A stretch of DNA of 64,000 nt from an uncultured Candidatus Poseidoniales archaeon (GTDB taxonomy: Archaea; Thermoplasmatota; Poseidoniia; Poseidoniales; Poseidoniaceae), in the NCBI GenBank assembly GCA_905181715.1, contig CAJIYT010000004.1:75185-139184 (forward strand), in the 5' to 3' direction. The notes beneath the pieces were generated by a model. The model worked only from the letters and a program-made list of their open reading frames with translations. It was not told the DNA's origin and made no database searches. Positions within the stretch are counted from its first letter, which is position 1, and the number at the start of each line of letters is the position of its first letter. Of this stretch, positions 7,352 to 47,300 are shown piece by piece. Made by a program: the position numbers and the translations under genes.

Positions 7352-7693
7352 GTGGCGATGTTGCATAGGGTCCTCACTGGTTTTTGCTCACTACCCGGCG
7401 TTGAGCAAGCATTCCTTTTCGACAATCTAGGTTGCTTGGTTGCATCGGTGGGTAATGCTGGTGAAATACCGTCAGCAGATGCTGCAGATAGTTTAGTAAA
7501 AAGTTGTCAAATGGTGACTGAGGCTGCATCTGCAGGCACACTTGAAGAGATCTGGTGCGAAGGAAGTAAGAGGATGATAATCGATAGGATTCGAAGTGAT
7601 TTGGTCCTAGTATTGGAAGGAGAAGGTGGCCAGTTAGCTCGTTGGCGCCATAGTATCGATAGAGATAGAGCCCTAATCGCAGAAATCGCATGA
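7352..7693 (+). CDS. Roadblock/LC7 (MglB-like) domain protein
   Basis: 113 aa. The pattern LPGVEQAFLFDNLGCLVASVG ... LEEIWCEGSKRMIIDRI..DLVLVLEG matches the alpha-beta-alpha Roadblock signature as I remember it. The next gene starts 10 nt downstream. Confidence 0.6.
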   Translation: MAMLHRVLTGFCSLPGVEQAFLFDNLGCLVASVGNAGEIPSADAADSLVKSCQMVTEAASAGTLEEIWCEGSKRMIIDRIRSDLVLVLEGEGGQLARWRHSIDRDRALIAEIA

Positions 7694-7702
7694 GGTGAGA
7701 AG

Positions 7703-10700
7703 ATGTTTGACCTACCATTTGGAATACCCGTCAAGGAAGAAATCAACCCCCAATCAGATACAATAATGCCATTTGACCATGGTGTAATCACAACATTCCT
7801 TGGCCGTAGGAAAACCCCTACGGGTCACCGCCTAGTTCGTTCTGGGCGCATAATCGGCTGGCTGGCTGAAGCAGAGAAGGGGAAATTCCTCCTGTGTGCT
7901 GATGAAGCACGTCTGCGTTTAGAGAAAATTGAGAGCGAACAACATCGCTTAATCGCTAAAAGTTGGACTCTACAAGGGCTGGGTTTGGTTGCAGAACTAG
8001 TTCCAGAAGCATTTGAACACGCTGCCGATAAGCAGGGCTTAACTGCAAGTGGAGATGTATTAGAGAGGTTACTTTCACGTGATATTTCGATGATTCTGGA
8101 ATTGCTTTCACAGAGAGACGAGGTACGCGGTGCACTTGCTGCCGACCAAGGGATGTTGGTTGATTCAACAGGAGAATTACCAGGAGATGGCGATGAACTT
8201 GCCACTCAAATCGGTAAAACACTGGCTGATAGGGCTGCAATGGCTGCCAATCTTGGTATTGGAGAAGCAGGCCATTGGACATTACACACTGAAGAATCTT
8301 CATTGCTTCTCGCTGAAGCAGGAGATTTAGCACTTGCAGTCTGGACTGAGGCCGCTGTCGATCATTCTCGCCTTATCAATGCGGTTTCGGCACTATTAGA
8401 TGGAAAGATTGGAGCCCTAAGTGCTAATGATGGCCTTCTTCCATTAGGATTTGTACTACGTGAAGGGAAAAGTGGCACTGATGCCGTTCTCTCTATGCTA
8501 GCAGATGCCTGTAAAGAGGAAGTCACTGGGCATTTGATGTCTGGTAAGAGCGAAAAAGCAACTCAATTAGCATTGGTAAGAGGAGTTCCTGTTGCCATTC
8601 GCGCAGCCCCTGGCCATAGTCTGAACGATGCACTTGACGACCTTACTGAACCGCGCAGGGTTCTCGAGTTGCATCGGCTTCCACTCGGTACAATACTATC
8701 TGCTGAATCCGGTAACGTTTCGGGATTCACCTTACAATCATTCTGTGAGGGACTAAGCACTATCCGTACTAGAACCGAATCACGCCAAGAACTAATCAGG
8801 AGAAAATTAGACACTATACTTGGCTTTGAAATCGGTATTGAGAAACTGAAAATGGACCGAGCAAATGTTCAATTCGATATTGAAGTCAGCGCGATTAGCA
8901 GTGGAATCGATGCTGAGACAGTGATGGCAATCGATAGTGGCCTCCGTAGATCTGTTGAAAAGGCAGAACACAAGGTTTCTAACTTAGAGCAGGAGATTTC
9001 TGCTCTTAATGTCAAACTCACAGGTGCTGAAAAAGCAAGATTAGCGGCAAAGGTATCGGCAGATGAAGCCAATAATCAAAGCGCTGAATTACAACAAACA
9101 GTCGAGTTTGCTAATTCTAAACTCGACACTACTCAAATTGATTTATCAGAAGCGAAGGCGATAAGTGAAGACTCAGCAGCCAGGGCAGAAAGGCTTTCGA
9201 AAAGGGTCAATGAATTGGAGCACCAACTATCAACAAGGGCGGTTGAATTAGCACGTGTTCTCGGCGACGCTAAAGCAAGTGCGGAATTAGCAATACAAAT
9301 CGAAGAGATGGCTACCAAAGAAGCAACCCTTTCGGCAGACATTGACACATTCTCGTCTCGATTGACAGAAATGCGAGATTTGGGCGATAATGAAGAACGA
9401 AGACTTCGGATGTTAAACGACCAAGTTGAAGCATCGAGAGATCGGCAAAGAAGAGCACAAGCTGAACTAATCGAACTCGAGACACGAATCAATTCTAGTG
9501 ACCTACATCTAAAGAGTTTGGAAGCGGAATCGAGAATAGCCGTCGATAGGGCAGAGGATAGTCGCAGTCGTATTTCACAAGACGAAAGTCGCAGAGATAA
9601 TCTAAACTCAGAATTACGAGAATTAATGGATGAGAGGCGTAATGTATTACGCGAAATTGGAGATTTAGGGGCGCGGCGAGGTCAGGCTGAAGCCAAATTA
9701 TCTGTTCTTATCGACCAAGCAGAAGCACTGGCTGATGCCCATGAAGACGCTCTTGAAGATATCAATGAAGCCGAAAAGATACGAGCGAGACTTTCCGAAG
9801 AACCTCTGGCACAAGCCTTGCTTGATGACGAAGGTACCTTTGAAGCACTCGGTCCAATCCTAGATCGACTTGAACATGCGAGGACCCTCGGCTATTCCGT
9901 CTCTTTACTCGACCGCGCTGTCGAGAGATCGCTACAGGTCATTCAGCAAACAGTAGACCATGTGGCTAAAACACCACGTCATCTTCTCTCAAATGAGGTG
10001 ATGGATTTACTTGAGCGTCAAGTTCCAACAACTGCAGGAGCAGTTAGGGGATTAGCGAGATGGAGTGTCCAGCAGAAACTCGAACATCAGCTCGGTGATA
10101 CCGTCAATCACTTGATATTGGATTTGGAGAACTTATTGGAAGATCACGACAGAGCAATCACAATGTTGCGTCGAATCAGAGGTGTACTAGAGCAATTGGA
10201 AGGATTGGGAGCACCTAGCGAACAAATCGAGGCTTTGAAAGCCAATTGTCGAAGGCCGGAATCGCTACCCCATTTGGCTAAGGAAACGAGAAAGCTAATC
10301 CGAATCGCTCTTGATGACATTCATCTTGAAAGTGATTTACGTGATGCTGGTTCAGCGGTAAAACTCGAGGCAACCACTCTTGCCCTCGAGGAATTGATTA
10401 CCCAACTAGATGCCACCGGCCTTACAGAAGGTGTTCCAAAGGGAGCGCTTTGGGACTTCCAAAGGGATGGCCATCTTCCCTTTGAAACCGGTTCGGTTCC
10501 AGCCGGAAAGAGATTGGCTGTTTCAGAGGATTCACTAGAGGAAATGGATGGTGAGTTAATCGATCAAGAAGCGGCGATTCAAATCGAGGATGAAGATATT
10601 CCAGTTGAATGGGTCGCACTTGAAGCCCCGGTCGATGTCGATGAGCCTAAAATAGAATTTACGGCGACTCCCACTCCACTAAGAAACAGTGATCACGATG

Positions 10701-10834
10701 AACGCGCCGCTCTTGAAGAGGAGTTAGCACGACTCGATGCGAGGTGGCAAAACAGGCTGGAACCTGAGGAAAGAGGCACAAGTAATGTCGCTCTATCAAG
10801 CCTTGAAGCTGATTTAGTCGATATCGATTTGTGA
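7703..10834 (+). CDS. large multidomain protein: internal Roadblock/LC7-like domain, possible PATAN/DUF4388-like segment, ~290-aa coiled coil, helical C-terminal domain and acidic tail
   Basis: 1043 aa. Residues ~120-233 (EVRGALAADQGMLVDSTGELPG...LLLAEAGDLALAVWTE) look like Roadblock. Residues ~415-700 are charged and heptad-like (E/R/A/L/S). The C-terminus is very acidic. Confidence 0.6.
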   Translation: MFDLPFGIPVKEEINPQSDTIMPFDHGVITTFLGRRKTPTGHRLVRSGRIIGWLAEAEKGKFLLCADEARLRLEKIESEQHRLIAKSWTLQGLGLVAELVPEAFEHAADKQGLTASGDVLERLLSRDISMILELLSQRDEVRGALAADQGMLVDSTGELPGDGDELATQIGKTLADRAAMAANLGIGEAGHWTLHTEESSLLLAEAGDLALAVWTEAAVDHSRLINAVSALLDGKIGALSANDGLLPLGFVLREGKSGTDAVLSMLADACKEEVTGHLMSGKSEKATQLALVRGVPVAIRAAPGHSLNDALDDLTEPRRVLELHRLPLGTILSAESGNVSGFTLQSFCEGLSTIRTRTESRQELIRRKLDTILGFEIGIEKLKMDRANVQFDIEVSAISSGIDAETVMAIDSGLRRSVEKAEHKVSNLEQEISALNVKLTGAEKARLAAKVSADEANNQSAELQQTVEFANSKLDTTQIDLSEAKAISEDSAARAERLSKRVNELEHQLSTRAVELARVLGDAKASAELAIQIEEMATKEATLSADIDTFSSRLTEMRDLGDNEERRLRMLNDQVEASRDRQRRAQAELIELETRINSSDLHLKSLEAESRIAVDRAEDSRSRISQDESRRDNLNSELRELMDERRNVLREIGDLGARRGQAEAKLSVLIDQAEALADAHEDALEDINEAEKIRARLSEEPLAQALLDDEGTFEALGPILDRLEHARTLGYSVSLLDRAVERSLQVIQQTVDHVAKTPRHLLSNEVMDLLERQVPTTAGAVRGLARWSVQQKLEHQLGDTVNHLILDLENLLEDHDRAITMLRRIRGVLEQLEGLGAPSEQIEALKANCRRPESLPHLAKETRKLIRIALDDIHLESDLRDAGSAVKLEATTLALEELITQLDATGLTEGVPKGALWDFQRDGHLPFETGSVPAGKRLAVSEDSLEEMDGELIDQEAAIQIEDEDIPVEWVALEAPVDVDEPKIEFTATPTPLRNSDHDERAALEEELARLDARWQNRLEPEERGTSNVALSSLEADLVDIDL

Positions 10835-10843
10835 GGGATTATC

Positions 10844-11050
10844 GTGCGGGTCTATCCACTTTGGATTGAGAAGATTGTTTTCATTTTACTAGCTACGGCT
10901 GGTGTCTGGGGTCTTTGGACTCAAAGTGACCTCATAGGATACCAATTATGGCTCAGCCTCTGTTGTGGCTTACCATTCTTCGGACTGATAATTACTGAAG
11001 CGGTTGGAAGAATGGTACAATTAGTCCACGTTTCAAGAACGGTTAAGTGA
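10844..11050 (+). CDS. small two-TM membrane protein (hypothetical)
   Basis: 68-aa ORF with a GTG start, 10 nt after the stop of the coiled-coil gene. It has two hydrophobic helices. The 3' end overlaps the convergent gene. Confidence 0.35.
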   Translation: MRVYPLWIEKIVFILLATAGVWGLWTQSDLIGYQLWLSLCCGLPFFGLIITEAVGRMVQLVHVSRTVK

Positions 11051-12190
11051 AGTCTCGATTAGACCCCACAGTCTTTGCCAAGGTACGAAGAAACGTAAAA
11101 CCGCCATTAAACCTAAGAAGAGCAGGGCTGAAATCACTAGTCCATAGGTCAATGTTAATTCAATAGATTCAGAAACCTGTGCTGCCCATTGACTTCCGGT
11201 CACTCCCTCTACAAACTCTAACAATACCGAGTGGAAGCCTAAAGCTACCATCGTGCTGAGTGTAGTTATAGTTAGGAATATCACAGTATGACGGAGATGG
11301 CCATTAAGGACATTATCTACCTGCTTTACATATTCTGGGTCTCTTTTACATGATTCTGGCAAACGGAAAGCATATTCCAATTGACGAATTACTCCAAATG
11401 CTGATTCCTGGAAGATCATGATTAAACAAGCTATCATTATGAGTGAAAACTGTTGTTCGGTTACAAGGTTCATACCTAAGAAACCGACAGTTGGTGCCCC
11501 GACCAATACATCTAGAGTCGCTAATTTATCGCCATATCCACCCAACTGCGCCTTGACAACTGGGAAGGAAAGTATTGCATGGATAGCGAGGAAAAGTAGA
11601 ACGAAGCCGATACACCAGGCAACTCCTTTTCTTGAGAGACCCCATATACCGCGAGTACCCATTATCACAGGCAATAGGTAGAACATGAGAATAACCATCG
11701 AGAGAATCATCAGCAATGGCCATTCAAGTGTGCCTAGAGCACTATCATCAGGAATTGTCCACCCCTCATCCCATAATTGCCATATATAACTCATTACGAA
11801 CCTTCCAGCGAGAATTAAAATCAAACCTATTACGAAACCGAGTTTAATCTTCTGTTGACGTTTTGGCGGTTGGAATGCGAGAAGTGACATCCCTCCTCCT
11901 ATGGTGAGGCCTACGCCGATTGGAACGTAATAGCTGGCAACCCCTTCTTGGTCAAGTCCGGTTAACCAATCACCAACCGGTAATTTCGACCCAATTTCGG
12001 CTTCAAGCATCCTGAAAAGGATGGTATGATCGATACTACCGACAACATATGTGGAAACGATTTCCATATACATCCAAACAAGAGCAACGGTAGCGATAAC
12101 CTGTAGTGTGATTATTTGCCATTGTTTACGTAATGTACGTAAATGAAGGGTACGATTGCCTTCTTCTTGGGGGGAAACTTCGCCTGCCAT
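11033..12190 (-). CDS. polytopic integral membrane protein, last gene of the DUF4350-DUF58 operon
   Basis: 385 aa with many hydrophobic helices. The ATG lies 11 nt after the DUF58 stop and is preceded by a GGTGA Shine-Dalgarno-like motif. Confidence 0.6.
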   Translation of the reverse strand: MAGEVSPQEEGNRTLHLRTLRKQWQIITLQVIATVALVWMYMEIVSTYVVGSIDHTILFRMLEAEIGSKLPVGDWLTGLDQEGVASYYVPIGVGLTIGGGMSLLAFQPPKRQQKIKLGFVIGLILILAGRFVMSYIWQLWDEGWTIPDDSALGTLEWPLLMILSMVILMFYLLPVIMGTRGIWGLSRKGVAWCIGFVLLFLAIHAILSFPVVKAQLGGYGDKLATLDVLVGAPTVGFLGMNLVTEQQFSLIMIACLIMIFQESAFGVIRQLEYAFRLPESCKRDPEYVKQVDNVLNGHLRHTVIFLTITTLSTMVALGFHSVLLEFVEGVTGSQWAAQVSESIELTLTYGLVISALLFLGLMAVLRFFVPWQRLWGLIETSLNRS

Positions 12191-12201
12191 TATCTCACCA
12201 C

Positions 12202-13455
12202 CTAATATCCTCGCACCTGCAATAATGCCTGACTCAAGTCCATATCAGGCATCCAATCAATTACCTGTGACCCGAAACCTGCTAGGCTTGTCATTCGATT
12301 TTGACGTTCGATTTTGAGAACTTCATAACTCATCCTTGGAATTCGACTTACCAATCGCTCGAAATCTATACTTGAAGGGGAGAGAACGGTAACCTCGTGT
12401 CCACGTCCAACCAAGTCCCTAATCGCTGCTGGAACAGTACCATCACCTTCACAACTGGAGATGATGAAGATAGGGCTTCCACGACTGAAACGTGCTGCTA
12501 GACTATTGGTCACCGCTTGTAATGGCATTGCTCCTTTTGGTGCTACACCTGCGAGTGAACTGAGAATTTTGAAATGCTGCTTATCGCCTGTATCAGGAGG
12601 CAGATAACTGAGTTTTTCATCATAGATAATCAGTGATACCGAGTCTCTCCGTTGAAGGAAGAAATTAGCGAGGCTAGCGGCAGCAACTGTGCCCATCTCA
12701 AGAGGATTCTTGAGAACGGTACCTATTCTAGCGATATCTCGGCTATCGAGGATGATGTAGAGATCAGTTACCGCATCACGGCATTTCTCATTAATCATCA
12801 AATCACCAGTTCTAGCAAATGCTTTCCAATTAATATTCTTGAAAGGGTCGCCTGGGACATATTCCCTCAACGAATAGAACTCAGTACCTGGGCCTGGGGT
12901 CCGCAGTGTTGTCGCACCTGTGTACATCTTTGGAGTGCGAGAACGGATGAATGCCTCTTCAACATCACGAAGTTGAGGGAAGACAATCATGTCCGAGTGA
13001 TGATCGACAAACATTTCTTCGACACTGAGGTTGAAGGTGTTTCGATAGCGCAGAGAAACCGGTCCAATTGAGAAATGGCCACGTAATGGACATCGCAATA
13101 CATAGCGAATCCTCGCACTTTCGCCTGGACCTAGATTCATCTTCATTTGGTTTAATCCACTCCGTAATTTCATCTCGTGAGGGACGTTATCGTATACCTC
13201 TAGTGTCTGAGTCCTACGGCTACTGCGATTAGTTACCAGTAACTCGACATAGAGATCATCACCTTTGTAGAGGTTATCTGCTGACAAAGTTCGTTGGACC
13301 TCAACATCACCATGACCGCTAATCCATGAATTGGCGACGATAAAGGCGACAAACGAAAGGCCAAGAATCATCATTTGGTGATTGGAGATCATCATTCCAA
13401 TCAAGATTAACGATATACCTCCAGCGAAAGTGAAGGATGCCTTGCGTGTCCACAT
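12202..13455 (-). CDS. DUF58 family protein (vWA-like, normally a MoxR-associated partner)
   Basis: ~417 aa. N-terminal TM pair, then the DUF58 hallmark LREYVPGDPFKNINWKAFARTGDLMINEK, followed by a vWA-like LYIILDSRD segment. The ATG at 13455 lies 1 nt after the upstream stop. Confidence 0.8.
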   Translation of the reverse strand: MWTRKASFTFAGGISLILIGMMISNHQMMILGLSFVAFIVANSWISGHGDVEVQRTLSADNLYKGDDLYVELLVTNRSSRRTQTLEVYDNVPHEMKLRSGLNQMKMNLGPGESARIRYVLRCPLRGHFSIGPVSLRYRNTFNLSVEEMFVDHHSDMIVFPQLRDVEEAFIRSRTPKMYTGATTLRTPGPGTEFYSLREYVPGDPFKNINWKAFARTGDLMINEKCRDAVTDLYIILDSRDIARIGTVLKNPLEMGTVAAASLANFFLQRRDSVSLIIYDEKLSYLPPDTGDKQHFKILSSLAGVAPKGAMPLQAVTNSLAARFSRGSPIFIISSCEGDGTVPAAIRDLVGRGHEVTVLSPSSIDFERLVSRIPRMSYEVLKIERQNRMTSLAGFGSQVIDWMPDMDLSQALLQVRGY

Positions 13456-13456
13456 T

Positions 13457-15094
13457 TCAGACACGCCCCCATACTTTCACTCGTTTGACTATGGCAACGG
13501 TTTGCTCAAGGGTGAAATCTCTATTTTCGAAGACGAACTTCACCAAAACCGGGTCTGCTATCATCGCCTGTAATTCACGAGCGGGCATTGAATCAAATTC
13601 CTCTCTAGTCAAGCCGTTTTGATTACGAACCTTCGAGAGGAAAACCTGCTTAATCTTATTTGTTTTAGCATAATAGGAATAACGATTAGCATCGCCAAAC
13701 CCATAGTAGATAATTGAAAATACGTGACGCCAAGGGTCGGGATCTTTCTTTTTCAGCAATACACCCTCGAATAAAACGAATAAACCGATAAATAACAATA
13801 GTTTTGCTAAACCTTCACCGGTAAAATATACCAATACGAAATATAGCATGTTGTAGGTATCTGTTGCCACATTGGATTGAACGTGACGACTCTCATCGAA
13901 TATTACCATCGCTGTTGGTGATGGTTCTCCTAAAGGCATTCCAGTGACAGGGTCTAGCCCCATCAAAGCCTCTGCGATTACATCTAATGCCCATTTTCGA
14001 TTATCATTAGCCGGGATTTCCTTGGTAACTGGACCATACTTACCGGCGTTAAAGCCCTCATAATCGTAAATGGCATTTATCAGAGTTGAGCCATCGGCGA
14101 TGAAGTGAACTCTCCCTCCGGCTTCGAATGGACTACAAGTGACCGATGCGCATACCTCGATTGAAAGATTGAATTGACCCCAAAGATCGGGAGTTTTTGT
14201 GTTCGTGCTCAACTGAATCTCACCGTCTCCGTTGATGTCAATTGTAGCCTCACTACTGCTCACTGCACGTATTCCCTGAGTGATCATTGCCGAGTGTTTG
14301 CTACTTTCATCAATATCGATTGAAGTGATATTGTTCAAAAGCATTTGATAAGATGCATTGTATTCTATTACACCATCTTGGTGATGCTGGGCACATAAAC
14401 CAGCTTCATCCTTACTGATAGTGGTTCCATTCAAGGCCATTAAATCAGCCCAAACCGCACAGATGTGCCTTCCAGAGAGCGCATCGCTGCTATTCCATCG
14501 GGAATGGGACTCGATTGTTTCAGTATCTATAACCGTGCCATTCATCCCACAAGGAGAGAGTTGCATACAGGTCCAAATGTAATTGTAATCCAATTCATGG
14601 ACGTAAACCGTATCGAAAAGTTGTGCTCTCTTGAATTTGACACCGAATTTTTCAGCGATGGTGTTTGCATAGCCATAATCCTCGAATACGATTACAGTAC
14701 CTCCTTTGATTACAAATTCGACGATTGCATCTACTTCACCAGGAGAATAGCCATCCTCGCTGGCAAATGTAACTACGCTATCACCACTAAATTGTGGAAG
14801 TGAAATGGTATCTCTCTCGACTCCTGCTATTACAAAAGTGACGTTGCGAGGATCTTCGAGTTCTTCGAGAAGCAATGGGCTTGAAACCAAAGATTTGGTT
14901 TTTATCCCCATATCATTGATATCTTGTCTAAAGGCTGAAAGGTCATCCCAATCGTCATCATAGGCCGAAAGTTGATTTGGTTGGCCGATATTGACAAAAT
15001 TAACCATCAAGGTTCCAAACAGAATAATCAGAACACCCCAAAAGGCGAATTGCAGGCCAATTCGCTTAAATTTAGAATTTCCGTCTGCCGCCAC
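13457..15094 (-). CDS. membrane-anchored DUF4350-like protein
   Basis: 545 aa. N-terminal TM, a flavodoxin-like block typical of DUF4350/GldG-type proteins (NVTFVIAGVERD...GGTVIVFEDYGYAN), a C-terminal TM and a cytoplasmic tail. GTG start preceded by GGTGA. The family call is from memory. Confidence 0.5.
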   Translation of the reverse strand: MAADGNSKFKRIGLQFAFWGVLIILFGTLMVNFVNIGQPNQLSAYDDDWDDLSAFRQDINDMGIKTKSLVSSPLLLEELEDPRNVTFVIAGVERDTISLPQFSGDSVVTFASEDGYSPGEVDAIVEFVIKGGTVIVFEDYGYANTIAEKFGVKFKRAQLFDTVYVHELDYNYIWTCMQLSPCGMNGTVIDTETIESHSRWNSSDALSGRHICAVWADLMALNGTTISKDEAGLCAQHHQDGVIEYNASYQMLLNNITSIDIDESSKHSAMITQGIRAVSSSEATIDINGDGEIQLSTNTKTPDLWGQFNLSIEVCASVTCSPFEAGGRVHFIADGSTLINAIYDYEGFNAGKYGPVTKEIPANDNRKWALDVIAEALMGLDPVTGMPLGEPSPTAMVIFDESRHVQSNVATDTYNMLYFVLVYFTGEGLAKLLLFIGLFVLFEGVLLKKKDPDPWRHVFSIIYYGFGDANRYSYYAKTNKIKQVFLSKVRNQNGLTREEFDSMPARELQAMIADPVLVKFVFENRDFTLEQTVAIVKRVKVWGRV

Positions 15095-15170: not shown

Positions 15171-15410
15171 TCATCGCTTCAGATGGATACGGGATGAGAT
15201 TCTTTCGACCTCGTCTGCAGGCACATTACAAACACTTTCGTTCGAAGGCCAAGGAAGCCGAGAAGGATCAAGATCATCCTCTAGTTTAACCAGTAATTCC
15301 AATATCACTCCCGATCTGATATCGATGACTATGTCATCGAGTGTTCCTAGACTATCGCCATTGGAATCGATGACCTGACGACCAATGAACTCGCGACCGA
15401 AGCTTGCCAT
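15171..15410 (-). CDS. PRC-barrel domain protein
   Basis: ~79 aa from the ATG at 15410. The ORF can extend to a GTG at 15473 that overlaps the cdc48 stop. The motif GRQVIDSNGDSLGTLDDIVIDIRSGVILELLV is typical of PRC barrels. Confidence 0.65.
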   Translation of the reverse strand: MASFGREFIGRQVIDSNGDSLGTLDDIVIDIRSGVILELLVKLEDDLDPSRLPWPSNESVCNVPADEVERISSRIHLKR

Positions 15411-15469
15411 AGTATTCCGCCAATCCTGCAATGGGAGTACGCAATGTATCAAGCAATCGGCGAATCGAC

Positions 15470-17701
15470 TCACATTGATTCCATACCACGACTGCTATCA
15501 CGGTCGCGTTTGATGTTTGAAATCCCTGAGGTTAGTCTTGCTTCCATCTTGGTATAGTATTCAAGCATTTCCGGGGTTACCGTTGGCCTGATTCGTGATA
15601 TCGCTTCTATGAAGTTTGATTTTGAAACGCTTTTCTTATTCGCCCGCATTGCTATCAATGCCGCTTCTCGACAAACAGCCTCGATGTCAGCACCGGTTAA
15701 GCCATCCATGTCGGCAAGTAAGTCCCCAGTACTGAATCTTCCTAGAGGCATTTTTTTAATGTGGATATTAAGGATTGCTTCTCTTGCCTCCTTATCAGGT
15801 GGTGGAACGTGCAATACCCGTTCAAACCGGCCACTCCGAAGTAATGCTGGGTCGATCATTTCGGGGCGATTAGTTGCTGAAATTACAATAACACCATCGA
15901 ATGACTCAACCCCGTCCATGCTCGCCAATAATTGATTAACCACACGATTGGATACGTCGGAGCCCTCATTTGATGATGAACTCGCCCTCATGCTGGCTAT
16001 CGACTCGAATTCATCAAGAAAAATTATTGAAGGCGAAGATTGTTTTGCCTTCTTGAATATCTCACGGATCGCTCGCTCAGATTCACCGACCCATTTGCTG
16101 ATTAACTCAGGGCCCTTTATCGAGATGAAATTAGCCTTTGCCTCTGTAGCTACCGCTTTTGCAAGCAAAGTCTTTCCAGTTCCAGGGGCACCGAATAGGA
16201 CGATTCCCCGTGGTGGCTTTATGCCGAAATGCTTGAACTTCTCAGGTTGGGTAAGCGGCCATTCGACGCTTTCCTTCAATCGTTCCTTGATTTCGGTTAA
16301 ACCGCCTACGCTATCCCAACTTACATTTGGAATCTCGACGTAAATCTCACGAAGTGCACTGGGCTCAATCTCTTTGATAGCGAATTTGAAATCATCCATT
16401 GTGACTTCCATCTTCTCAAGAACCTCCGGTGGAACCGTATCCTCTTCAAGATCTATTTCCGGCAGGTAGCGGCGCAGTGCTTTCATTGCACTCTCACGTA
16501 CCAGTGCCGCTAGGTCAGCCCCAACGAAACCATACGTATGCTCCAATACCCACTCGATATCGAAATCGTCGGATATTGGCATCTGCCTAGTATGAACATC
16601 CATTATTTCCTTGCGTCCTTCACGGTCGGGGACGCCAATCTCAATCTCTCTATCGAACCGACCTGGTCTACGTAATGCAGGATCGAGAGCATCACGGCGA
16701 TTGGTTGCACCAATTACGATAACATTGTCTCTACCTTGCATTCCGTCCATCAAGGTGAGCATCTGTGCTACTACTCTGCGTTCTACTTCGCCAGATACTT
16801 CTTCACGTTTTGGACAAATAGAATCGATTTCATCGATAAAGATAATCGCTGGAGCATTTTTTGCTGCTTCATCGAAAATCTCACGCAATTGCTTTTCAGA
16901 TTCGCCATAATATTTTGAGATAATCTCTGGGCCATTGATAGAGGTGAAATGTGCATTTGTTTCAGTGGCTACCGCTTTGGCAATCATGGTTTTCCCGGTC
17001 CCGGGTGAACCGTGCAATAATACACCCTTTGGTGGGTCTATTCCTAAGCGCCTGAATAATTCAGGGTGTTTAAGTGGTAATTCAATCATTTCACGAACTT
17101 TGAGCAATTGGGTACCAATGCCACCTATATCCTCGTAGGTTATTCCTTGGGATTGGCCAACATCCTCTTCATCAACCGCTTCGTCTTTGATGACGATATC
17201 GGTGTCGTTATCAACTTGAACGATTCCTTTTGGAGTGGTCTTCAACACGGCAAATGGTAATGCTTCAGCAAAGAGGGTCATTCCCGGAATGAAAATACGA
17301 TCGCCAACTACAACTGGGCGTTTGTTCAAACCGCGGCGAGCGAAACCCTCGATGCCTGGCCCAAACTTGACTTTTTGACGATCTGCCATTACAGGAGAAA
17401 GGACTAGTTTAGTGCAAGCCTTTGCTTCAACTTTGGATACAGTTACTTTATCTCCGAGGGAAACACCTGCATTTTTACGGATTATTCCATCAATTCTAAT
17501 AATTCCAAGTTTTGCATCTTCTGGCCGGCTGCGCCAATAGATTGCTGCTGTGGACTCGTTTTCACCCTTGATTTCAATGATATCGCCGGGCTTGAGATCT
17601 AGGTTATTACCACCACTGATTCTAGCCCTTCCATGACCTACATCAGAGGGGATTGCCTTGGCTACACGTAGAGAAATTGCAGTACTGTCATCATCGCCCA
17701 T
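15470..17701 (-). CDS. cdc48: AAA+ ATPase Cdc48/VCP/p97 (CdcA) homolog
   Basis: 743 aa. Has an N-domain (double-psi barrel region) and two AAA modules with Walker A motifs GSPGTGKT and GAPGTGKT, Walker [17 protein letters not shown], and second-region-of-homology motifs. Confidence 0.95.
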
Positions 17702-29303: not shown

Positions 29304-31076
29304 TCAAATCTGTTCACCGGTTTGAATAGCCCACATTCGTGCATAAATGCCGTCTAATGTCAGCAAATCTTCGTGTAAGCCGTCCTCGACAATTTTGCCT
29401 TGGTCCAACACTAGAATCCTATCTGCATTGCGTACTGTCGATAAACGGTGTGCAATGATTACAGCAGTACGATTTTGTGAAATCTTGTTGATCGAACGCT
29501 GGAGTGCTGCCTCAGTTTCATTATCGACAGCAGATGTTGCTTCGTCTAAAATGAGGAGAGGGGCATCTTTGAGAACGGCTCTTGCGATTGCAAGTCGTTG
29601 ACGTTGGCCTCCTGATAACCGATGGCCGCCTTCACCAACCAATGTTTCCCAACCATCGGGAAGCGCTTCAACAAAGTCGGTGACTTCACCAAGACTAGCG
29701 GCTTCAAGGACCGCTGCATCGACAGCATCAGGATTACCATACCGAATATTTTCCATAATAGTTGTTGGAAATAATGTGATATGTTGGTCTACCAAGGCCA
29801 TAGATGAACGCAGGCGCTCTAATTTCCATTCATGTAGTGGCTTTCCAGCCCATTCGATAGTACCATTATTTGGTTCAGCAAATCGCAATAGCAAACGAAT
29901 CAAAGTTGTCTTACCAGAACCTGTTGAACCTACTACTCCAACGGTTTCTCCAGAGCGTAATTCTAAATTTAGATTGGAAAATACAGGATCACGCCCTGGA
30001 TAAGAAAAATCGACATCTGAGAATATGATTGATGTCGATTCGATGATTTTGGAATCAGGAGAGTAATCTCCCTGAATTACTTCGGTTGGTGAAGTAAGGA
30101 CATCGAGCACTCGCGTTGATGATGCCATTGCTCTTTGGTAAAGATCGAATGTTTCACCCAATCGTGTTAGTGGCCATAACAAACGCTGGGTCATGAAGAC
30201 AAGTACTGAATATGCACCTACTGCCAATTCATCCTCAAGGGTCATCCAACCACCAAGGAGTAATGTCGCCGTAAAGCCACATAGAATGGCCATTCGAATC
30301 AAAGGAGTAAACGCTGCAGATAGACGAATCGCTTGACGATTTGATTCGCGATAGACGTTGCTAAGTTCCTCGACGCGCTTTATTTCCCGCTCTTCAGCTG
30401 TGAAGGATTGAATCGTTGACATACCTGAGAGATCATTCTCTAGCAATGAATTCATGGCTCCAGCAGCGCGACGGACCTCAGCATAACGTGGTTCGAGACT
30501 ACGTTGATAACGGAAAGAACCCCACACAATCAGTGGGATTGGAAGAACTGCAAACAATGCTACTTGCCAGGAGATAGCGATGAATACCGCACCAACTACT
30601 ACGACTGTGGTCGAGACTTGTAACAAGTCGTTCGCACCTTTATCGAGAAAACGTTCCAACTGATTGACATCATCATTGAGAATTGCAAGGATGTCACCTT
30701 TTTGCCGTTCATCAAACCATCCCATCCCTTGGCGTTGAACGTGTGCAAAAGTATCTAGCCGTAATTCGTGTTGAACTGTCTGGGCTAGATTTCGCCAAAG
30801 AATGCCATAGAAATACTCGAATAGAGATTCCAGCCCCCAAATGACAAAAGTTAGTACTGAGAGCAATATTAGTTGGTGCCATGGGTTAACAAAACCCAAT
30901 GAAGCAAGAAATGAATCTTCGCGTTCGACCACCACATCGACTGCCAAACCAATCAATAGCGGAGGGGCTAGATCCCAGACTTTATTGGTGATTGAACAGA
31001 ATGAAGCCAATCGGATTGTTCCTTTGTGATCGCCCATGTGCCCAAGGAGACGACGAAACGGACCGGTTTCACCCAT
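29304..31076 (-). CDS. ABC transporter, fused permease/ATP-binding exporter (MsbA/multidrug type)
   Basis: ~590 aa from the ATG at 31076. Six-helix TMD, then Walker A GSTGSGKT, signature LSGGQRQR and Walker B LLILDEATS. The ORF-track extension to 31316 overlaps the divergent gene and I do not trust it. Confidence 0.9.
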   Translation of the reverse strand: MGETGPFRRLLGHMGDHKGTIRLASFCSITNKVWDLAPPLLIGLAVDVVVEREDSFLASLGFVNPWHQLILLSVLTFVIWGLESLFEYFYGILWRNLAQTVQHELRLDTFAHVQRQGMGWFDERQKGDILAILNDDVNQLERFLDKGANDLLQVSTTVVVVGAVFIAISWQVALFAVLPIPLIVWGSFRYQRSLEPRYAEVRRAAGAMNSLLENDLSGMSTIQSFTAEEREIKRVEELSNVYRESNRQAIRLSAAFTPLIRMAILCGFTATLLLGGWMTLEDELAVGAYSVLVFMTQRLLWPLTRLGETFDLYQRAMASSTRVLDVLTSPTEVIQGDYSPDSKIIESTSIIFSDVDFSYPGRDPVFSNLNLELRSGETVGVVGSTGSGKTTLIRLLLRFAEPNNGTIEWAGKPLHEWKLERLRSSMALVDQHITLFPTTIMENIRYGNPDAVDAAVLEAASLGEVTDFVEALPDGWETLVGEGGHRLSGGQRQRLAIARAVLKDAPLLILDEATSAVDNETEAALQRSINKISQNRTAVIIAHRLSTVRNADRILVLDQGKIVEDGLHEDLLTLDGIYARMWAIQTGEQI

Positions 31077-31201
31077 GAGCCGGCCACAACGGTGAGGTAT
31101 GAGTAGTCTGTGATTATTATCACAATGTAAATCATAGGCTCGAATGAATCTCGTCTGCATTATTACAAAGGACTTTGAATGAATCTTTATGAGGGCCACA
31201 A

Positions 31202-32104
31202 ATGGGCCTGCCTCTCGGATATGGCGAACGGGATTCGACCCCTTACACCATATTGTCATTGGTTTTAACAAGTATATTTTGCCTTCTTGCATTCTTCCAA
31301 TGGAATCTTTTTTCACTAATTGAAGATAGTTCCCCTACATTTCATACATCTTGGGCTCCATTGGGATTTGTAGTGATATGGCGTTTTGTTTGTGCGATAG
31401 TAGGATTATCTGCAGTTGTTTACATGTTTAGGAAAACTCCTGGCTTCATGCCAGTTATACGTCATAAAGAGCGAACTGAAGAGATCATTCACCCTGTCGG
31501 CATTCAGCATTTTGTCACTTTCAGTAGTTGGACTTTGTTGATCAACATACTTTATTTCCTTCTTTCTGGTATTGTCACTTTGTCGATACTAATTGGAACT
31601 ACTGTACCGATATTGATGGATATCGCTGTAATTATTTTCTTTTCGGCTGCAGCTGGGTCTTCTTTCCTAACCTCGACAGTTGTTCGTCACATAATTCTGC
31701 CAGAGGAGGTGAAAATTGGACGGATTAACGAGAATATGTTCAACTTTCATAATCAATTAATGCATAATTTAGCAGCTATTTTCATTGCTGTTGACTTGAT
31801 TATTATTCAACCTATACTACATCCTGAATTCGCTGTATTCGGGTTGTTTTTTGGTCTTCTTTACGTGGTTTTCGCCTATATTTTTGCATTCTATGGCGGC
31901 GGTTTCTATGTCTATACCTTTATTGATCCAAGATTGAAATTTGCTCCGTTGTTGATGAGTGCTTTGGCTATAGCTATAGCGACATTCTATCTTGGATTAT
32001 GGGGTTTGAATCAATTGATGTCATACAATTACCTGATTGGAACTGCAGTACTGGTTTTATGGGTTTCATTTATTGTTCAATTCCGGTCTAAATTACCCGA
32101 ATAG
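31202..32104 (+). CDS. polytopic membrane protein (possibly FAR-17a/AIG1- or Pr6Pr-like)
   Basis: 300 aa with ~7 hydrophobic helices. The family suggestion rests on a weak remembered resemblance (TFSSWTLLINILYF). Confidence 0.45.
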   Translation: MGLPLGYGERDSTPYTILSLVLTSIFCLLAFFQWNLFSLIEDSSPTFHTSWAPLGFVVIWRFVCAIVGLSAVVYMFRKTPGFMPVIRHKERTEEIIHPVGIQHFVTFSSWTLLINILYFLLSGIVTLSILIGTTVPILMDIAVIIFFSAAAGSSFLTSTVVRHIILPEEVKIGRINENMFNFHNQLMHNLAAIFIAVDLIIIQPILHPEFAVFGLFFGLLYVVFAYIFAFYGGGFYVYTFIDPRLKFAPLLMSALAIAIATFYLGLWGLNQLMSYNYLIGTAVLVLWVSFIVQFRSKLPE

Positions 32105-33413: not shown

Positions 33414-36400
33414 TCACTCCACACCCTCTTGGTGGATAGAGGTTACCTCTCGTAAATCCTCATTATCCAGCCGGTAATTATACCAATCATCCTCGTCCCA
33501 ACCTTCGGGGATTGGACCATCAAGCCACCATATGAATTCCTGAGTTGTCCAACCATCCGGGATACGTTCATCTATTATTTCCACTTCATTACCCGGTAAA
33601 TCATCGAGTGTAGGGAGTTGCAATGATTCCTGTTGTTCAGCAAACCATTCGCTTTCTGGGATCTCTTCTTTACGCCGTAATGTAAATGCAAAGGAGCTTA
33701 TTATTACTAAAACAATCACGAACCCAATACCAAGATATGCTACTGTAGTCATCTTTACCCCGGACTCAACCTCATCATTGAGGTCTTCTGTCTGGCAATT
33801 TAAGCAAGGGAGAGGAGCGTCGATTCTAATAGTATCATTGACTCTTGTAGACTGTCCAGTTGGATCCGTACAAATAATCGAAATAGTTAGGTTTCCCTCT
33901 AAATTCTTGGGAACAAGCCACGTCCATGTCGAAACTCCACTGCCATCTATTTCAGAGACGGTTTGACTTGAATCCCAAATCGGATCCACTCCCTGAAAGA
34001 GAGTTATAGCACATTCTGTATTTTCAACACCATCGGCATCTGTAACAATTACTTGGAAATTGACTGTTTTCCCCGCGGTTGTATTTACAGGGAAGTTGGT
34101 TTCTATTACCGGAGGAGCATATCGTAATTGCAGTGATATCTGTTGTGAAATCGACAAGCCATCGAGATCACGAATTGTGGTTTTTATCAACCCACTGCCT
34201 TCTCCGAATGCCAAATCAGGATATATATTGAACATATGTAGTTCGGTATCATTGTAAACTTGTGCACAATTATTTTCGTAATCTTGTTGCTCAGGCGCAT
34301 CTGCAGCCCATCCATCTTGGAAAAGTGTAGTTGAGATGGTAGAAAGATCTCTATCTGAATTTACCCAAACAAAGGCATATGCAGGATGACCAAGCATCAA
34401 TTCATCGATTTCATTACCTAATTCATCACATATCTTCAAGGAAATAATCTCGGGTGGCCTTAACAATAATGGAATCGTTATAATTGAACTATTCTCACTT
34501 TGGTGTAATCCTTGAATCGTGACCTCGATAATTACCTCACCGCTTTCAAGTGCAAACGATGGCGCTGCGATAGGTAGAATAATCTCAGTTTGATTTGCTT
34601 CTAGATAGAAAGTACTGCTTATCGCTTGGTATCCGGGCCAAGCCAAACTCATCTCTCCGCTGGCTGTGGTAATTGGGTCATCGAAGTCTTCGATTGTTAT
34701 TCTGACATTTTCTCTGCCACTGCCGTGAAGCCTATCTTTGATTTCTCCATCATTACCAACAATTTCGAGACTTATACTAGGGGCGTAATCGACGATTTTT
34801 ATCTCCCGGGAAGAGATTACGGTCCCAGCATTGGTAGCAAGGGTAAGAGTGAATGGTATTAGGAATGGTTCTAATTCATCCATCACTTCAATCAACAATG
34901 TGGATGAATAACAGTTCTGATCGCCAATAGAATCGTTTTCAAGGACTATTTCACCGAGTATTCCTTTAGAAGCACTGATGATGGGTTTCTCAGTGATAAT
35001 ATCATGATCGGGATCGATTACACAAGTTCTGAGATATATTATTTCACCGCGATGCACTCCTGCTATTGGTTTGGTTAGAAGATATGTAGCCCCGCTCCAA
35101 CTATCCGAATCAACTCCCTCGACATGAACTCCATACCATCTCGCTTGAGCATCGACTACCTCTGATATATTCGTCATTACACCTGATATAGATTGAACTG
35201 AAGCATCAATTGCTTTTGCAGTAATTGTTAACCAACCCAATGGAACATCACTTCCTAGTTGGAAAGACGTCCACCAAGTCAATTTATCGGAACTACCGGC
35301 ATTAGACCATGTCACAGAAGTTGTATTACCGTCCATATCGGTAATACTCCAGCCAATCATCACCGCAGTCACCTCATTATCATCATTGGCAATCACGGTA
35401 CAACCGAAAGTGTCTCCCCTACTATATACGCTGGAATCGCAATAAATTTGTTCGATTACAGGTGGGCTATTTACCCACACTCTAATTCTGTGATCATTAT
35501 TATCGACAATACGTTCTCCCATTACCGAATCATCAGAATCATAACTTATTACAAGTTCATTCCAACCAATTCTACTAGAATTGAATTGCAATTGCAAGAT
35601 AGCCCTACTGCCATCTTGGTCACCACCTGGAAGAGAGATTGTCATCTCAGTAAGGATAATTCCACCCATAAGGTCTCTGAGGGTAATTGAACCATTGGCC
35701 TGACCTGGAGATAGATTCTCAAGGGCGATTTCCATTGTCGTATTCTGACCTTTAGAAGCATTGTTTATCATTCGGACATCTATGATATTGATATCATGCA
35801 ACCCATTGGCAAATGCTGCCATTTTGGGATCGCCGATTACGACACCCATCCAGCCAGATAAGGTGTTTGCAGCATAATAAGATTCAGCCATCGTATATCC
35901 TTGGGCGTAGGTAGAATGCAATACTGAAGGATAACTAATCGCAGTGATATATGGCTCATAGACGTAACCTTTGACACCACTAACTCCATCTTCCAATAAA
36001 TCTGCAACCAAAGATTGCCCGTACGAAGTGTCCCAATTGAAAGAACGGCCCCCGGTAGAAACCGCAGTTTCTGCGATTGAACCATTCGCCCACTGATTAT
36101 GAGGACGAATGGGCTGTAAATTGACTGTATCAAGGAATAATGAGCCATCTGTAGATGTAGAAACGATATCTAATGAAATTGTTATTTTGAAAGCGTGTGT
36201 GTTTGAAGGAGGACGGTATCTCAAACTAGCTGCTTCCCAAGATGTGGTGAATGCTTTGCTCAACGACTTATTTGTAGCAATTATTGCACCATTCACATCT
36301 AATGATTCTACTTCGGTTTCAAATTCACCATATACTCCACCAGTACGCATCCCCTGTGCTGATAAAATCCAAGCGTGATTTTCATAATCCAATGGAACAG

Positions 36401-44276: not shown

Positions 44277-44380
44277 TCAAGGTCATCGGCCATTCATGAG
44301 CATTGTCATTACAAATTCTGAACGATAAAGGGGATGATTGAAATCAAATACCTCGCGTGGGCCACTGGCCCACGTTGGAG

Positions 44381-47300
44381 ATGATGATGATGAAGCGCGC
44401 AATTCTAATGTCTATACTCATGCTTACAGTGGTCTTTGTGCCCACTATATCAGGTGAAGTTACCGAAACTAAATTTACAAATGGGCTAAGTTCCTCCACT
44501 CATATATTTACCGGTACTGGCAATAGTAATGCAGGGGAAATCTCAATTCCTTATGGCGCTGTGGTCACCGATTCTCAGTTCACAATGACTGGTGTTCCAG
44601 CAAGTGAATCCTATGGTAATCTCAGTACTGATAGCGATTTTGGCGGGGTCGGAAGTAATTCTTGGCAGAACACTCCGCCGGGATTCAATTATGGATATCG
44701 ATATAATCTAGAATCAACTCTCGATTCTATCTCACTAAAAGGGCAAACAAGCATTGGGTCATACCCGCTTGAGAAAGCAGGAGATATTTCTTCAACTACC
44801 GGTTTCCACAATACTACTGGAGAATTCGTCGCTAATGGCGACCAAGGATATAGTGGGCTGACCGAAAAGAAATCTTCACTATCTGTAGATACCAGTGCTG
44901 CATGGAATTATCCAGGCCCTGTTACCTTTGATGAAAATGAGGTTCACGTATTGCATTGGAGTACTACTTCTTTCACGACGGCGCCTGCTGTGATGAGATT
45001 CAACAGAAGTACTGGTGATTACGAAGGAGCGGCTAATCTAGCAATAAACACCTGTCATTTTGGCGCTGATTACTATCTCTATGATGTTACCAACGGAGGA
45101 GAAGGGGTAATGTGGACTGTATCTTATAATTACGAAGTCATTGCCAAATGGACACTCAATGCTGCGAAAACAACTTGGAATTGCGATTCTAGTTGGCAAA
45201 TGAGTTATCCATTTCAACCTGCAGGCATCGATATCGATGAAGATACTGGAGAGATGTATCTATACGTTTACGAATCTAATTTTCAGGCTAATTATCCCCG
45301 TCATCTATACCAAGTAAGTACCAGCAATCCATTAAACATACAACAACAATGGAATCTTGGTGATGCTGATGATTACAAATTATCCTCCTCTAATGGATTG
45401 GTTGTCAACCTCCCACTGATTATCACAGGCGAATATAGTAGTTCAAAGAGCAATCATCACTATCACAATTTGATTGGTGGTTTTATCGAACGAATGGGGT
45501 TTCAAGAATTTTCAGGAACGCCTCACTACGGCATGGAACAGAGTGAAGATGGGAAACTAGCATTTACCTGTTATTACAAGTCGACATGTACTGCAAAAGT
45601 GCATGAAATTTTGCAATATGGCGACGGTTCGGTCACCGATGCGAGAATACCGTCATCATCAATGTCAACGGTTACATCTCCAACCAAATTCTTGAGTTTG
45701 GCAATCGATCGGGTGAAACTATCTGCTCTTGTCGGTTTCATCCCAAGCCAAACATCAATCGAATTATCGGTTTCAAATGATGGTGGGGGAACATGGCAAT
45801 CAATACTCCCCGAGCAGACGATTTCATTTCCGACTTCAGGTACACAATTACGTTGGAAAGCATGGTTGAATGGTAGCGCGAGCGTCACACCTATTCTCGA
45901 CCTAGTAAATCTTGAATATACTAGCTCATATTCCTCAAGTGGTTATTTCTATCTTAGGACTCTATCATTCACTCAGCAAAGTATGCCTGCTGCTATGACT
46001 ATTCACTACAATGCAACAATTCCTGCTAGTACTACCTTTACCGTTGAACTAAGGCAAGGAAGTACCTCGACGGTGAATGCAATTCAATTCGCTGATGGAG
46101 ATACTAACGCCATCACTTTAACAAGCGGATATCTATACGTCTATGTGACTTATATTTCAGGTTCTGCTAGAACCCAAACCCCCATGCTACATGATATCAA
46201 TATCACTTTCCATAATGATGCTCCACAAGAGGCCGCGATAGATATCGGCTCTGATGGTTCAAAAGAATGGAAAAGTTCTGGGACTTTTATTGGTACCTCT
46301 ACTTTGAACGAAAATGACTTTGATGATGCATTCAACTCATTGATACCGAATAGCGGTTCTGGCTTCGAAAATATTTCAATCGACATATCGAGTAAATCAT
46401 CTGGAATATTAATCCTTGAAAGTTTTTCAGTAACATATGTCATGAATACGATTAATCTGGACATAAGTTTCCCAGAGGGAGAAATTCTCCATTCAAGAGA
46501 TGCTCCGTATGAGATTATCACACGTCACATCATCGGCGAAAACGCGAATGATATTTCGTCTGCAACTCTTTCTTTCAAAGCTAACCCTGTTGGATTAGCA
46601 CCAACTCTTGAGTGGGACTCAACAGATGGGTTTGCCGAACCCAACGACCCGGATTCATGGATTGATACGAGTGCTGATCACTCCTTTACCCGAGAGATAA
46701 ATGGAATGCTTGAAATCCACTGGATATTCGAAGTTACTAGTAACTTCGCTGAACAAGAAAATGTTCTTTTTACTGTCGATTGCCTTGATGACTCTGGTAA
46801 CGCAGGGATTTCACCAATAGCTCTTACCTCTGCTACAGGAATGCGAGTGAATCAATCATACGGCATGGGATGGATGAAAGTTAGAGATAATTTCGGTGAA
46901 ATGACACGAGAAGATGTGGCTACTGGAGAATGGGTTGCTGCTGGTGAAGACCTACTTTTCCAGGGTGCATTATGGTTCTCAGACTCAGTTGATGCGCCTA
47001 AAGATGATGCATTTGATATCCGAATCTCACAGGATGGTTATGTCTGCACCAATTGTAGAGATAATACCAACTTCAATGGCTCTTTCTCACTCCAGGTGCA
47101 AGTTCCTAACTCAAATAATGAAGAAGGCGTCGTCTATGAAATTCAAACCTATAATGAAAGGGATTCCACTCTGGTATTACCTATAAATGATAATTGGCGA
47201 AGAGTTCTGAAAGTAGATGCTACTCCGCCTCAAATATTATCGGTTTATCCAAATGACGAGTCATATGAGGCAGCGAGTTATCTGCAAACTGTGGCCATTG

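Follow-up and report, generated by a model that had tools for sequence, protein, structure and literature searches.

In a 64-kb stretch of DNA from an uncultured Candidatus Poseidoniales archaeon (contig CAJIYT010000004.1; hereinafter, the window, that is, the whole stretch that was analyzed), we describe three adjacent genes that form a real, conserved operon specific to Poseidoniales. The operon encodes a small protein of the Roadblock/LC7 type, a giant protein of 1043 amino acids (aa) in which a predicted Roadblock domain precedes a long coiled coil and a conserved C-terminal helical domain, and a mini-protein with two hydrophobic segments that is a putative two-pass membrane protein (Table 1). 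The Roadblock superfamily is known and orphan members of it are common; the architecture of the giant, the conservation of the trio across the order and the C-terminal domain, which had not been recognized previously, are new. No paper describing the giant's family was found in the literature on Poseidoniales and Thermoplasmatota, in agreement with an earlier reading of the window made from the sequence alone (hereinafter, the original prediction), which knew of no characterized equivalent of the system. Marine Group II is among the most abundant groups of planktonic archaea and none of its members has been cultured, so that their cell biology is essentially unknown; a core gene set shared across the order provides a handle on how these cells organize their interior or envelope.

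The three-gene operon and its conservation

All three genes are located on the plus strand, and the two gaps between them, which the original prediction had put at about 10 nucleotides (nt), are 9 nt each. The first spacer contains a Shine-Dalgarno-like GGTGA upstream of the ATG of the giant, which suggests translational coupling inside the operon. The small gene can be read from a GTG or from an ATG and, because its orthologs start with MLHRVL or MLQRVL, the ATG at position 7358, yielding a protein of 111 aa, is probably the true start. The small gene and the giant share a frame, with one stop codon and two codons between them (an offset of 351 nt, window positions 7352-7705). Read-through from the former into the latter was considered and rejected: the corresponding offset in a related locus (L002) is 344 nt, so the shared frame is coincidental. 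An antisense open reading frame (ORF) of 114 aa (7374-7718) that overlaps the small gene has no supporting evidence and is taken as spurious.

Close homologs of the giant number more than 500 and are 1039-1052 aa long. An exhaustive search with aa 1-410 over 1.84 billion representative sequences yielded no more than 59 clusters, of which ten are full-length (1020-1089 aa), each of these matching the query over the first ~380-400 residues. In a scan of GTDB species genomes, a relative of the giant was found to be encoded in 293. The source databases name these proteins 'hypothetical protein' or give them COG-derived labels. Gene order was read from 80 loci retained from the 293-genome scan. The named loci among these 80 are assigned to Poseidoniales, Poseidoniaceae or Poseidonia, and the rest carry the generic labels Euryarchaeota or Methanobacteriota, with the exception of one mis-binned contig; the archaeal origin that had been deduced for the window is thus borne out, the relatives being Thermoplasmatota and Poseidoniales. 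The distant clusters include Candidatus Thalassarchaeaceae, which implies that the family spans Marine Group IIa (MGIIa) and Marine Group IIb (MGIIb).

The small Roadblock gene lies directly upstream of the giant in all of the 80 loci for which upstream sequence is available, and a mini-ORF with predicted transmembrane segments (TMs) is found 3' of the giant in 68 of the 78 scorable loci. The trio is kept across MGIIa and MGIIb, at giant identities down to 28%, so that the synteny in related genomes on which the original prediction depended is evident in both groups; in MGIIb and other divergent loci, the three products have lengths of 123, 1071 and 89 aa, 101, 1076 and 86 aa, or 114, 1064 and 72 aa. 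The possibility that the flanking ORFs arose by chance, or that the trio consists of unrelated neighbors, could appeal to the shortness of these ORFs and to the score of the window's small protein, which is below the Pfam cutoff (see below). This explanation is refuted, and we consider it extremely improbable, given that both small proteins are conserved at the protein level, in the same positions, in dozens of species.

Several lineages depart from the complete trio. In the P0145 lineage (loci L006 and L007), the giant is intact and the small gene is reduced to a 38-aa remnant, which, on comparison of the sequences, looks like decay of the small gene with retention of the giant. Approximately 310 nt of non-coding DNA replace the small gene in these loci (7690-8001 in L006 and 2588-2899 in L007), and the remnant ORF, MMQRMVASFCCFMAFVRGV..., resembles the N-terminus of the small protein. 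In the P0156 lineage (L004 and L005), the small protein is shortened to 100 aa. The loss of the small gene or of the mini-protein in some lineages singles out the giant as the constant core of the module. The complete operon, with the same neighbors, is also present on contigs labeled as Phycisphaerae bacterium (L082, NZFX01000057.1) and Flavobacteriales bacterium (P0106), which are probably mis-binned contigs of metagenome-assembled genomes.

Table 1. Features of the Roadblock operon and of its surroundings, in window coordinates
Feature	Coordinates	Strand	Basis
Small Roadblock/LC7 gene	7358..7693 (ATG, 111 aa) or 7352..7693 (GTG, 113 aa)	+	ORF list, ortholog starts
Intergenic spacer, 9 nt, with Shine-Dalgarno-like GGTGA	7694..7702	+	direct sequence reading
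Giant, 1043 aa, ATG start	7703..10834	+	ORF list, homologs
Giant aa 1-113, beta-rich N-terminal domain (predicted)	7703..8041	+	AlphaFold2 model, conservation
Giant aa 119-232, Roadblock/LC7 domain (predicted)	8057..8398	+	AlphaFold2 topology, Foldseek, consensus Pfam match
Giant aa 250-325, small alpha/beta domain (predicted)	8450..8677	+	AlphaFold2 model
Giant aa ~415-700, charged coiled-coil segment	8945..9802	+	profile matches, composition
Giant aa ~701-930, helical-bundle C-terminal domain (predicted)	9803..10492	+	AlphaFold2 model, conservation
Giant aa ~931-1043, acidic tail	10493..10831	+	AlphaFold2 confidence, conservation
Mini-protein, 68 aa, GTG start, two TMs	10844..11050	+	ORF list, conservation
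Convergent cluster: 385-aa multi-TM protein, DUF58 protein (12202-13464), DUF4350-like protein (13457-15094)	11033-15094	-	
100-aa ORF, directly upstream of CDC48 (15470-17701, -)	15171-15473	-	
Very large ORFs of 601, 864, 1742 and 1678 aa	308-4679 (-), 33414-38642 (-), 44357-49393 (+)		

Two Roadblock modules

The small protein of the window matches the Pfam profile Robl_LC7 (PF03259) with 20.0 bits (E = 5.9e-4), the gathering cutoff being 23. Among its 18 orthologs, 17 match this profile at E <= 0.01, the best of them with E = 2.8e-7, and several have PF03259 among their precomputed annotations. A profile search of PDB with the small-protein family returned seven matches, all of them to Roadblock or MglB chains and each of them weak (E = 0.019-1.2); the top match is the Thorarchaeota Roadblock protein 7f8m (E = 0.019), with MglB entries next. 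Sequence comparison thus places the small protein in the Roadblock/LC7 family, as originally proposed for the 113-aa reading. Past the Roadblock core, a basic C-terminal segment, LARWRHxxDRDR, is strongly conserved.

An AlphaFold2 (AF2) model of aa 1-410 of the giant, built on 13 family sequences, has a predicted local distance difference test (pLDDT) score of 69.9 and comprises three units (aa 1-113, 119-232 and 250-325) followed by helices that run into the coiled coil. The second unit has the topology alpha-beta-beta-alpha-beta-beta-beta-alpha. The best 50 matches in a Foldseek search against PDB are all Roadblock, MglB or LAMTOR structures (E = 1.9e-6 to 9e-5; target TM-score 0.61-0.84, 89-127 aligned columns). 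They are headed by the Asgard Roadblock protein 7yh1_A (E = 1.9e-6, target TM-score 0.84) and include MglB of Myxococcus xanthus and Thermus, subunits of LAMTOR/Ragulator and the Streptomyces protein 3kye; the Foldseek output does not contain query coordinates, and the match was assigned to aa 119-232 by its secondary-structure pattern. At the sequence level, the family consensus of aa 118-237 matches positions 4-89 of the 91 in Robl_LC7 with 32 bits (cutoff 23; E = 1e-7), and a distant member, P0145, yields a sub-threshold match (aa 132-215, E = 6e-4, 19.9 bits); the giant of the window itself does not match Robl_LC7 in Pfam. The model, together with the consensus match, indicates that aa ~119-232 adopt the Roadblock/LC7 fold, and the second Roadblock domain that had been placed at aa ~120-233 in the original prediction is accordingly retained.

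A direct hhalign comparison of the N-terminal region of the giant with the small Roadblock family aligned only 27 columns (aa 130-162 against 6-32) with a probability of 5%. The two Roadblock modules are not recent duplicates, and the assignment of the giant's domain relies on the structural and consensus searches.

Other regions of the giant and the mini-protein

The N-terminal domain of the giant starts with an almost invariant MFxLPxG and contains a basic hairpin, GRRxTPxGHRLV. Neither a Pfam search with members of the family and its consensus nor a sequence-profile search of PDB with the N-terminal region produced a match for this domain.

The third unit of the N-terminal model has the topology beta-alpha-beta-beta-beta-alpha-beta. 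The original prediction had noted a weak resemblance of aa ~245-345 to PATAN/DUF4388, which the comparisons do not uphold. A Pfam search including PF14332, with 13+9 members of the giant family and the consensus, gave no match to the aa 250-325 domain at E <= 10. A PATAN consensus that matches PF14332 at E = 1e-28 in a Pfam check was tried; used as the query in a protein homolog search, it had no matches. Six Deinococcus DUF4388 matches were obtained by tblastn on plasmids and nine more loci by a metagenome scan, and four of the Deinococcus plasmid sequences together with nine from the metagenome loci, 13 real sequences in all, made up the PATAN profile. In hhalign comparisons of this profile with the giant, aa 260-294 aligned with E = 0.017 and a second 'SGNVSGFTLQSF' motif, at aa 336-355, with E = 0.0019; as controls, the unrelated N-terminal domain reached E = 0.0032 and the others 0.055-0.83. 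For the aa 250-325 domain the E-values against PATAN were 0.017-0.077, and those of the controls 0.0032-0.9. The alignment register and the order of secondary structure elements look compatible with PATAN, but the score does not rise above background, and the domain is left without a family assignment. One of the Deinococcus sequences, on plasmid P2 of Deinococcus gobiensis (L008, 43781-46969), is a DUF4388/PATAN gene preceded by three small, overlapping hypothetical genes, with which it apparently forms an operon.

The same unit of the giant contains GHLMSGKS (aa 276-283; window 8528-8551), which matches the Walker A pattern and could mislead motif-based annotation. It is not a P-loop: only G276 is conserved throughout the family, GKS is not conserved in the distant members, no more than about a third of the related loci have the motif, and its predicted structural setting is a beta-hairpin (strands 276-280 and 287-292).

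The segment at aa ~415-700 contains ~6 proline and glycine residues in 280 aa and is 30-49% charged. In HMMER searches of Pfam and NCBIfam, the profiles of Tropomyosin, SMC, Rad50 and JetC match the giant only at aa ~413-718 (those of Tropomyosin and SMC at aa 416-718) and far below the family cutoffs; together with the low proline and glycine content, these matches substantiate the charged, heptad-like stretch reported originally. The coiled coil is interrupted by a conserved break, GDLGARRG (aa 652-660; window 9656-9682).

The SMC match (TIGR02168, E = 8e-10) and those of JetC (E = 0.0097) and Rad50 (E = 0.49) might be taken to mean that the giant is a chromosome-organizing ATPase of the SMC/Rad50 type or belongs to another characterized coiled-coil family, an outcome that the original prediction itself had named as fatal to its proposal. 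These matches are limited to the coiled coil (aa 413-718) and reach 9-37 bits against cutoffs of 567-1087, TIGR02168 itself attaining 37 bits against 567 over aa 419-718 only, and the SMC_N head, the hinge and a conserved Walker motif are all absent from the giant; this identity is refuted, and its probability is negligible. A role in anti-phage defense was also rejected: the only PADLOC match is that of the JetC coiled coil (11.7 bits at the above E-value), and the operon is core and syntenic, not variable.

Downstream of the coiled coil, the AF2 model of aa 690-1043 (18 sequences, pLDDT 77, predicted TM-score 0.61) shows an all-helical bundle, after which come an acidic stretch of low confidence and two helices at the end, in accord with the helical C-terminal domain and acidic tail of the original prediction. 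Across members down to 28% identity, conservation of the giant is highest at aa ~650-930. A Foldseek search of PDB with the C-terminal model had a best E-value of 0.75 and TM-scores below 0.3 for the larger alignments, the best match in a PDB profile search with the C-terminal region was FliS (E = 0.18, not meaningful), and a Pfam search with the consensus of the domain yielded nothing close to the cutoff. We therefore predict that aa ~700-930 constitute a new conserved helical domain without a structural relative in PDB. The acidic stretch (~aa 963-995; model residues 274-306) has pLDDT values below 50 and helices follow at model residues 307-330 and 338-350; past the low-confidence stretch, a conserved ERAxLExELARLD helix leads to a conserved C-terminal peptide, LxDIDL. 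Three conserved motifs lie outside the assigned domains, namely MFxLPxG (aa 1-7, 7703-7723), GDLGARRG and LExxLxDIDL (aa 1030-1043, 10790-10831), and are candidate interaction or hinge sites.

The mini-protein, which was originally listed as a 68-aa ORF with two TMs, is conserved at the protein level: the copy in L002 is 42% identical (E = 4e-16), and seven residues show no or almost no variation over 67 unique sequences (Y4, P5, E9, P44, E52, G55, R56, Q59 region). The conserved motifs, YP..IE (YPLWIE) and E..GR..Q, are located near the two termini. Basic residues at both ends of the mini-protein suggest that both termini are cytoplasmic.

The absence of a GTPase partner in the neighborhood

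The original prediction had reported no P-loop GTPase ORF next to the trio, and the scans extend this result: no G....GK[ST] motif was found in small ORFs in any frame of the 64-kb window, and no small P-loop GTPase in any frame of 87 related loci (1.07 Mb). The other Walker A motifs of the window belong only to CDC48 and to the ABC transporter at 29304-31316; an archaellum or pilus ATPase near the trio was also considered and rejected, the ABC transporter being the sole Walker A protein besides CDC48. The accompanying statement that prokaryotic Roadblock genes usually adjoin a GTPase gene was an overstatement, considering that 328 of the 749 MglB homologs (44%) in the survey of Wuichet and Sogaard-Andersen (2015; PMC4316618) are orphans. 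According to the same survey, no orphan MglB had been characterized at that time (PMC4316618); characterization of the trio would add a studied case to this class.

These observations bear on the possibility that the operon encodes an MglB-like regulator, in which the Roadblock platform, built from the giant, from the small protein or from both, would serve as a GTPase-activating protein (GAP) or guanine nucleotide exchange factor (GEF) for a Ras-like or other small GTPase encoded at a distance in Poseidoniales genomes, with the coiled coil localizing this activity. In fold, the giant is nearest to the GAP MglB and to LAMTOR, which is a GEF or scaffold; the best sequence relatives of the small protein in PDB are Roadblock and MglB proteins; the COG-based names of JGI label some members of the family 'regulator of Ras-like GTPase activity'; and there are known cases of orphan MglA and MglB acting in trans (PMC4316618). 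Against this stand the negative results of the scans, the near confinement of the archaeal MglA proteins (group 4) to methanogens and the lack of a characterized orphan MglB (PMC4316618). Moreover, the Roadblock fold also functions independently of GTPases, for example, in dynein LC7. On balance, we consider an MglB-like function unlikely.

A tentative model of the complex

The reading that we put forward instead is that the operon encodes a membrane-associated, dimeric Roadblock rod, a non-enzymatic adaptor or scaffold that places a partner at the membrane and is not a GTPase switch; its chances of being correct as a whole appear to us to fall somewhat short of even. Under this model, the giant would dimerize via the coiled coil to form a rod, the length of which, given an uninterrupted helix, could reach ~40 nm (280 residues x ~0.15 nm), and dimerization would bring the Roadblock domains of two giants together as a dimeric platform of the usual kind. 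As an accessory subunit, the small Roadblock protein would dock on this platform, either as a stacked dimer, in the manner of MglC on MglB or of the LAMTOR dimers of Ragulator, or in place of one protomer. The C-terminal bundle and the C-terminal acidic peptide would form the effector end, and in most lineages, the two-TM mini-protein would hold this end, or the whole rod, at the membrane, such that the complex positions a partner there.

No enzymatic domain or P-loop was found in any of the trio proteins in the Pfam/NCBIfam searches and the motif scan; the combination of two Roadblock modules, a coiled coil, a terminal bundle and a membrane hairpin without a catalytic domain points to a scaffold. 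The accessory status of the small protein is suggested by the retention of the giant where the small Roadblock protein is lost or shortened. For the same reason, an obligatory heterodimer of the small protein with the Roadblock domain of the giant, which could otherwise be envisaged, seems unlikely: L006 and L007 keep the giant along with a 38-aa remnant, and in L004 and L005 the small protein is down to 100 aa. The assembly of one Roadblock protein on another has a precedent in MglB and MglC (PMC4719450), and the Ragulator entries among the fold matches of the giant point the same way. That the most conserved part of the giant is the C-terminal domain is consistent with a partner-binding end. 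The tight packing of the genes, the retention of the trio across MGIIa and MGIIb and the conserved residues near the two termini of the mini-protein also speak for the model.

Several points nevertheless weigh against the scaffold model. The mini-protein is not universal: the P0120 lineage (L001, L017 and L056) has no room for its gene, and L004 and L005 carry a 448-aa FG-GAP protein in its position. With the mini-protein missing in the former and replaced in the latter, the membrane link, judging by gene content, cannot be essential, nor can anchoring via the mini-protein be universal. The coiled coil may be a parallel dimer or a folded-back hairpin. Gene order around the operon is conserved across the order, which makes adjacency weak evidence of functional coupling. 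Finally, a GTPase partner may be encoded in another part of the genome, the scan having covered the window and the related loci.

A more specific variant of the scaffold model, to which we assign a low probability, is a cytoskeletal or polarity scaffold specific to Poseidoniales, in which a Roadblock platform operates without a small GTPase and the C-terminal bundle recruits a cellular machine, for example, one for division, cell shape or surface appendages, to the membrane. If such a scaffold is indeed encoded by the operon, it would represent a new kind of spatial-organization system of archaea, in abundant uncultured inhabitants of the ocean.

Comparison with known Roadblock systems and coiled-coil scaffolds

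MglB is a Roadblock-domain GAP for MglA, and MglC is its Roadblock paralog. The MglB/MglC system of M. xanthus and Thermus thermophilus resembles the trio in the common fold (6hjm, 6izw and 3t12 rank high among the fold matches of the giant, and MglB chains are also among the sequence matches of the small protein) and in the combination of two different Roadblock proteins in one module, both being single-domain proteins of ~110-160 aa. However, one of the Roadblock domains of the trio is embedded in a 1043-aa coiled-coil protein; furthermore, the trio is archaeal and has no MglA-type GTPase nearby.

The fold is also shared with Ragulator/LAMTOR (p14/MP1) and with the C-terminal Roadblock domains of Rag proteins (matches to 5y39, 1veu and 6ehr). 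Ragulator consists of stacked Roadblock dimers with a separate small protein, LAMTOR1, as the membrane anchor, which offers an analogy for the trio. LAMTOR1 has a lipid anchor and embraces the dimers, in contrast to the two-TM hairpin that is the candidate anchor of the trio, and Ragulator is eukaryotic, lacks a coiled coil and serves the Rag GTPases, unlike the archaeal, coiled-coil-containing trio.

FrzS and AglZ of M. xanthus, in which a receiver domain is combined with a long coiled coil, are scaffolds involved in polarity and motility. They share with the giant the layout of a localized scaffold in which a small regulatory domain at the N-terminus precedes a long coiled coil. They differ from it in that the N-terminal domain is a receiver rather than a Roadblock domain, they are bacterial, and they show no sequence relationship to the giant.

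The fold match to CvnB (3kye) brings in the actinobacterial conservon, a multi-gene, membrane-associated module. The conservon includes the sensor-kinase-like CvnA and the GTPase CvnD (PMC4316618), neither of which is present in the trio. The Asgard Roadblock proteins (7yh1, 9jue and 7f8m) are archaeal as well and provide both the best fold match of the giant (7yh1_A) and the best sequence match of the small protein (7f8m); unlike the giant, they are stand-alone, single-domain proteins, none of which is fused to a coiled coil. They are discussed alongside Rag and Arf-like GTPases (PMC10933270).

Neighboring genes

The operon converges on a cluster encoding a 385-aa multi-TM protein, a DUF58 protein and a DUF4350-like protein. 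Conceivably, the trio and this cluster jointly produce a larger membrane complex, for example, with the trio assembling or regulating a membrane machine of the vWA/DUF58 type. The cluster adjoins the trio in every locus examined, at giant identities from 28% to 91%, and in the window the genes for the mini-protein and the 385-aa protein overlap by 18 nt at their 3' ends. However, the two groups are transcribed convergently and hence do not form one operon; the region extending from pyrBI and TtuA to CDC48 and aldehyde dehydrogenase is collinear across the order, so that adjacency may mirror a conservative gene order; and DUF58 evolves far more slowly than the giant, with 85-94% identity between species in which the giant is only ~60% identical, which does not suggest co-evolution. 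A joint complex therefore seems quite unlikely to us. The usual partner of DUF58 is a MoxR-type ATPase; no gene for such an ATPase adjoins the DUF58 gene.

In related loci, the counterpart of the 100-aa ORF located upstream of CDC48 carries PF05239 (PRC barrel), and its pairing with CDC48 is conserved wherever the loci reach that far. A role in the division of archaeal cells has been ascribed to PRC-barrel proteins (CdpB).

The window also contains several very large ORFs (Table 1). The 601- and 864-aa proteins have no match in Pfam; L002 contains syntenic counterparts of them, of 833 and 581 aa. At their N-termini, the three largest of these ORFs have what look like signal or anchor sequences, and the ORFs probably encode surface proteins.

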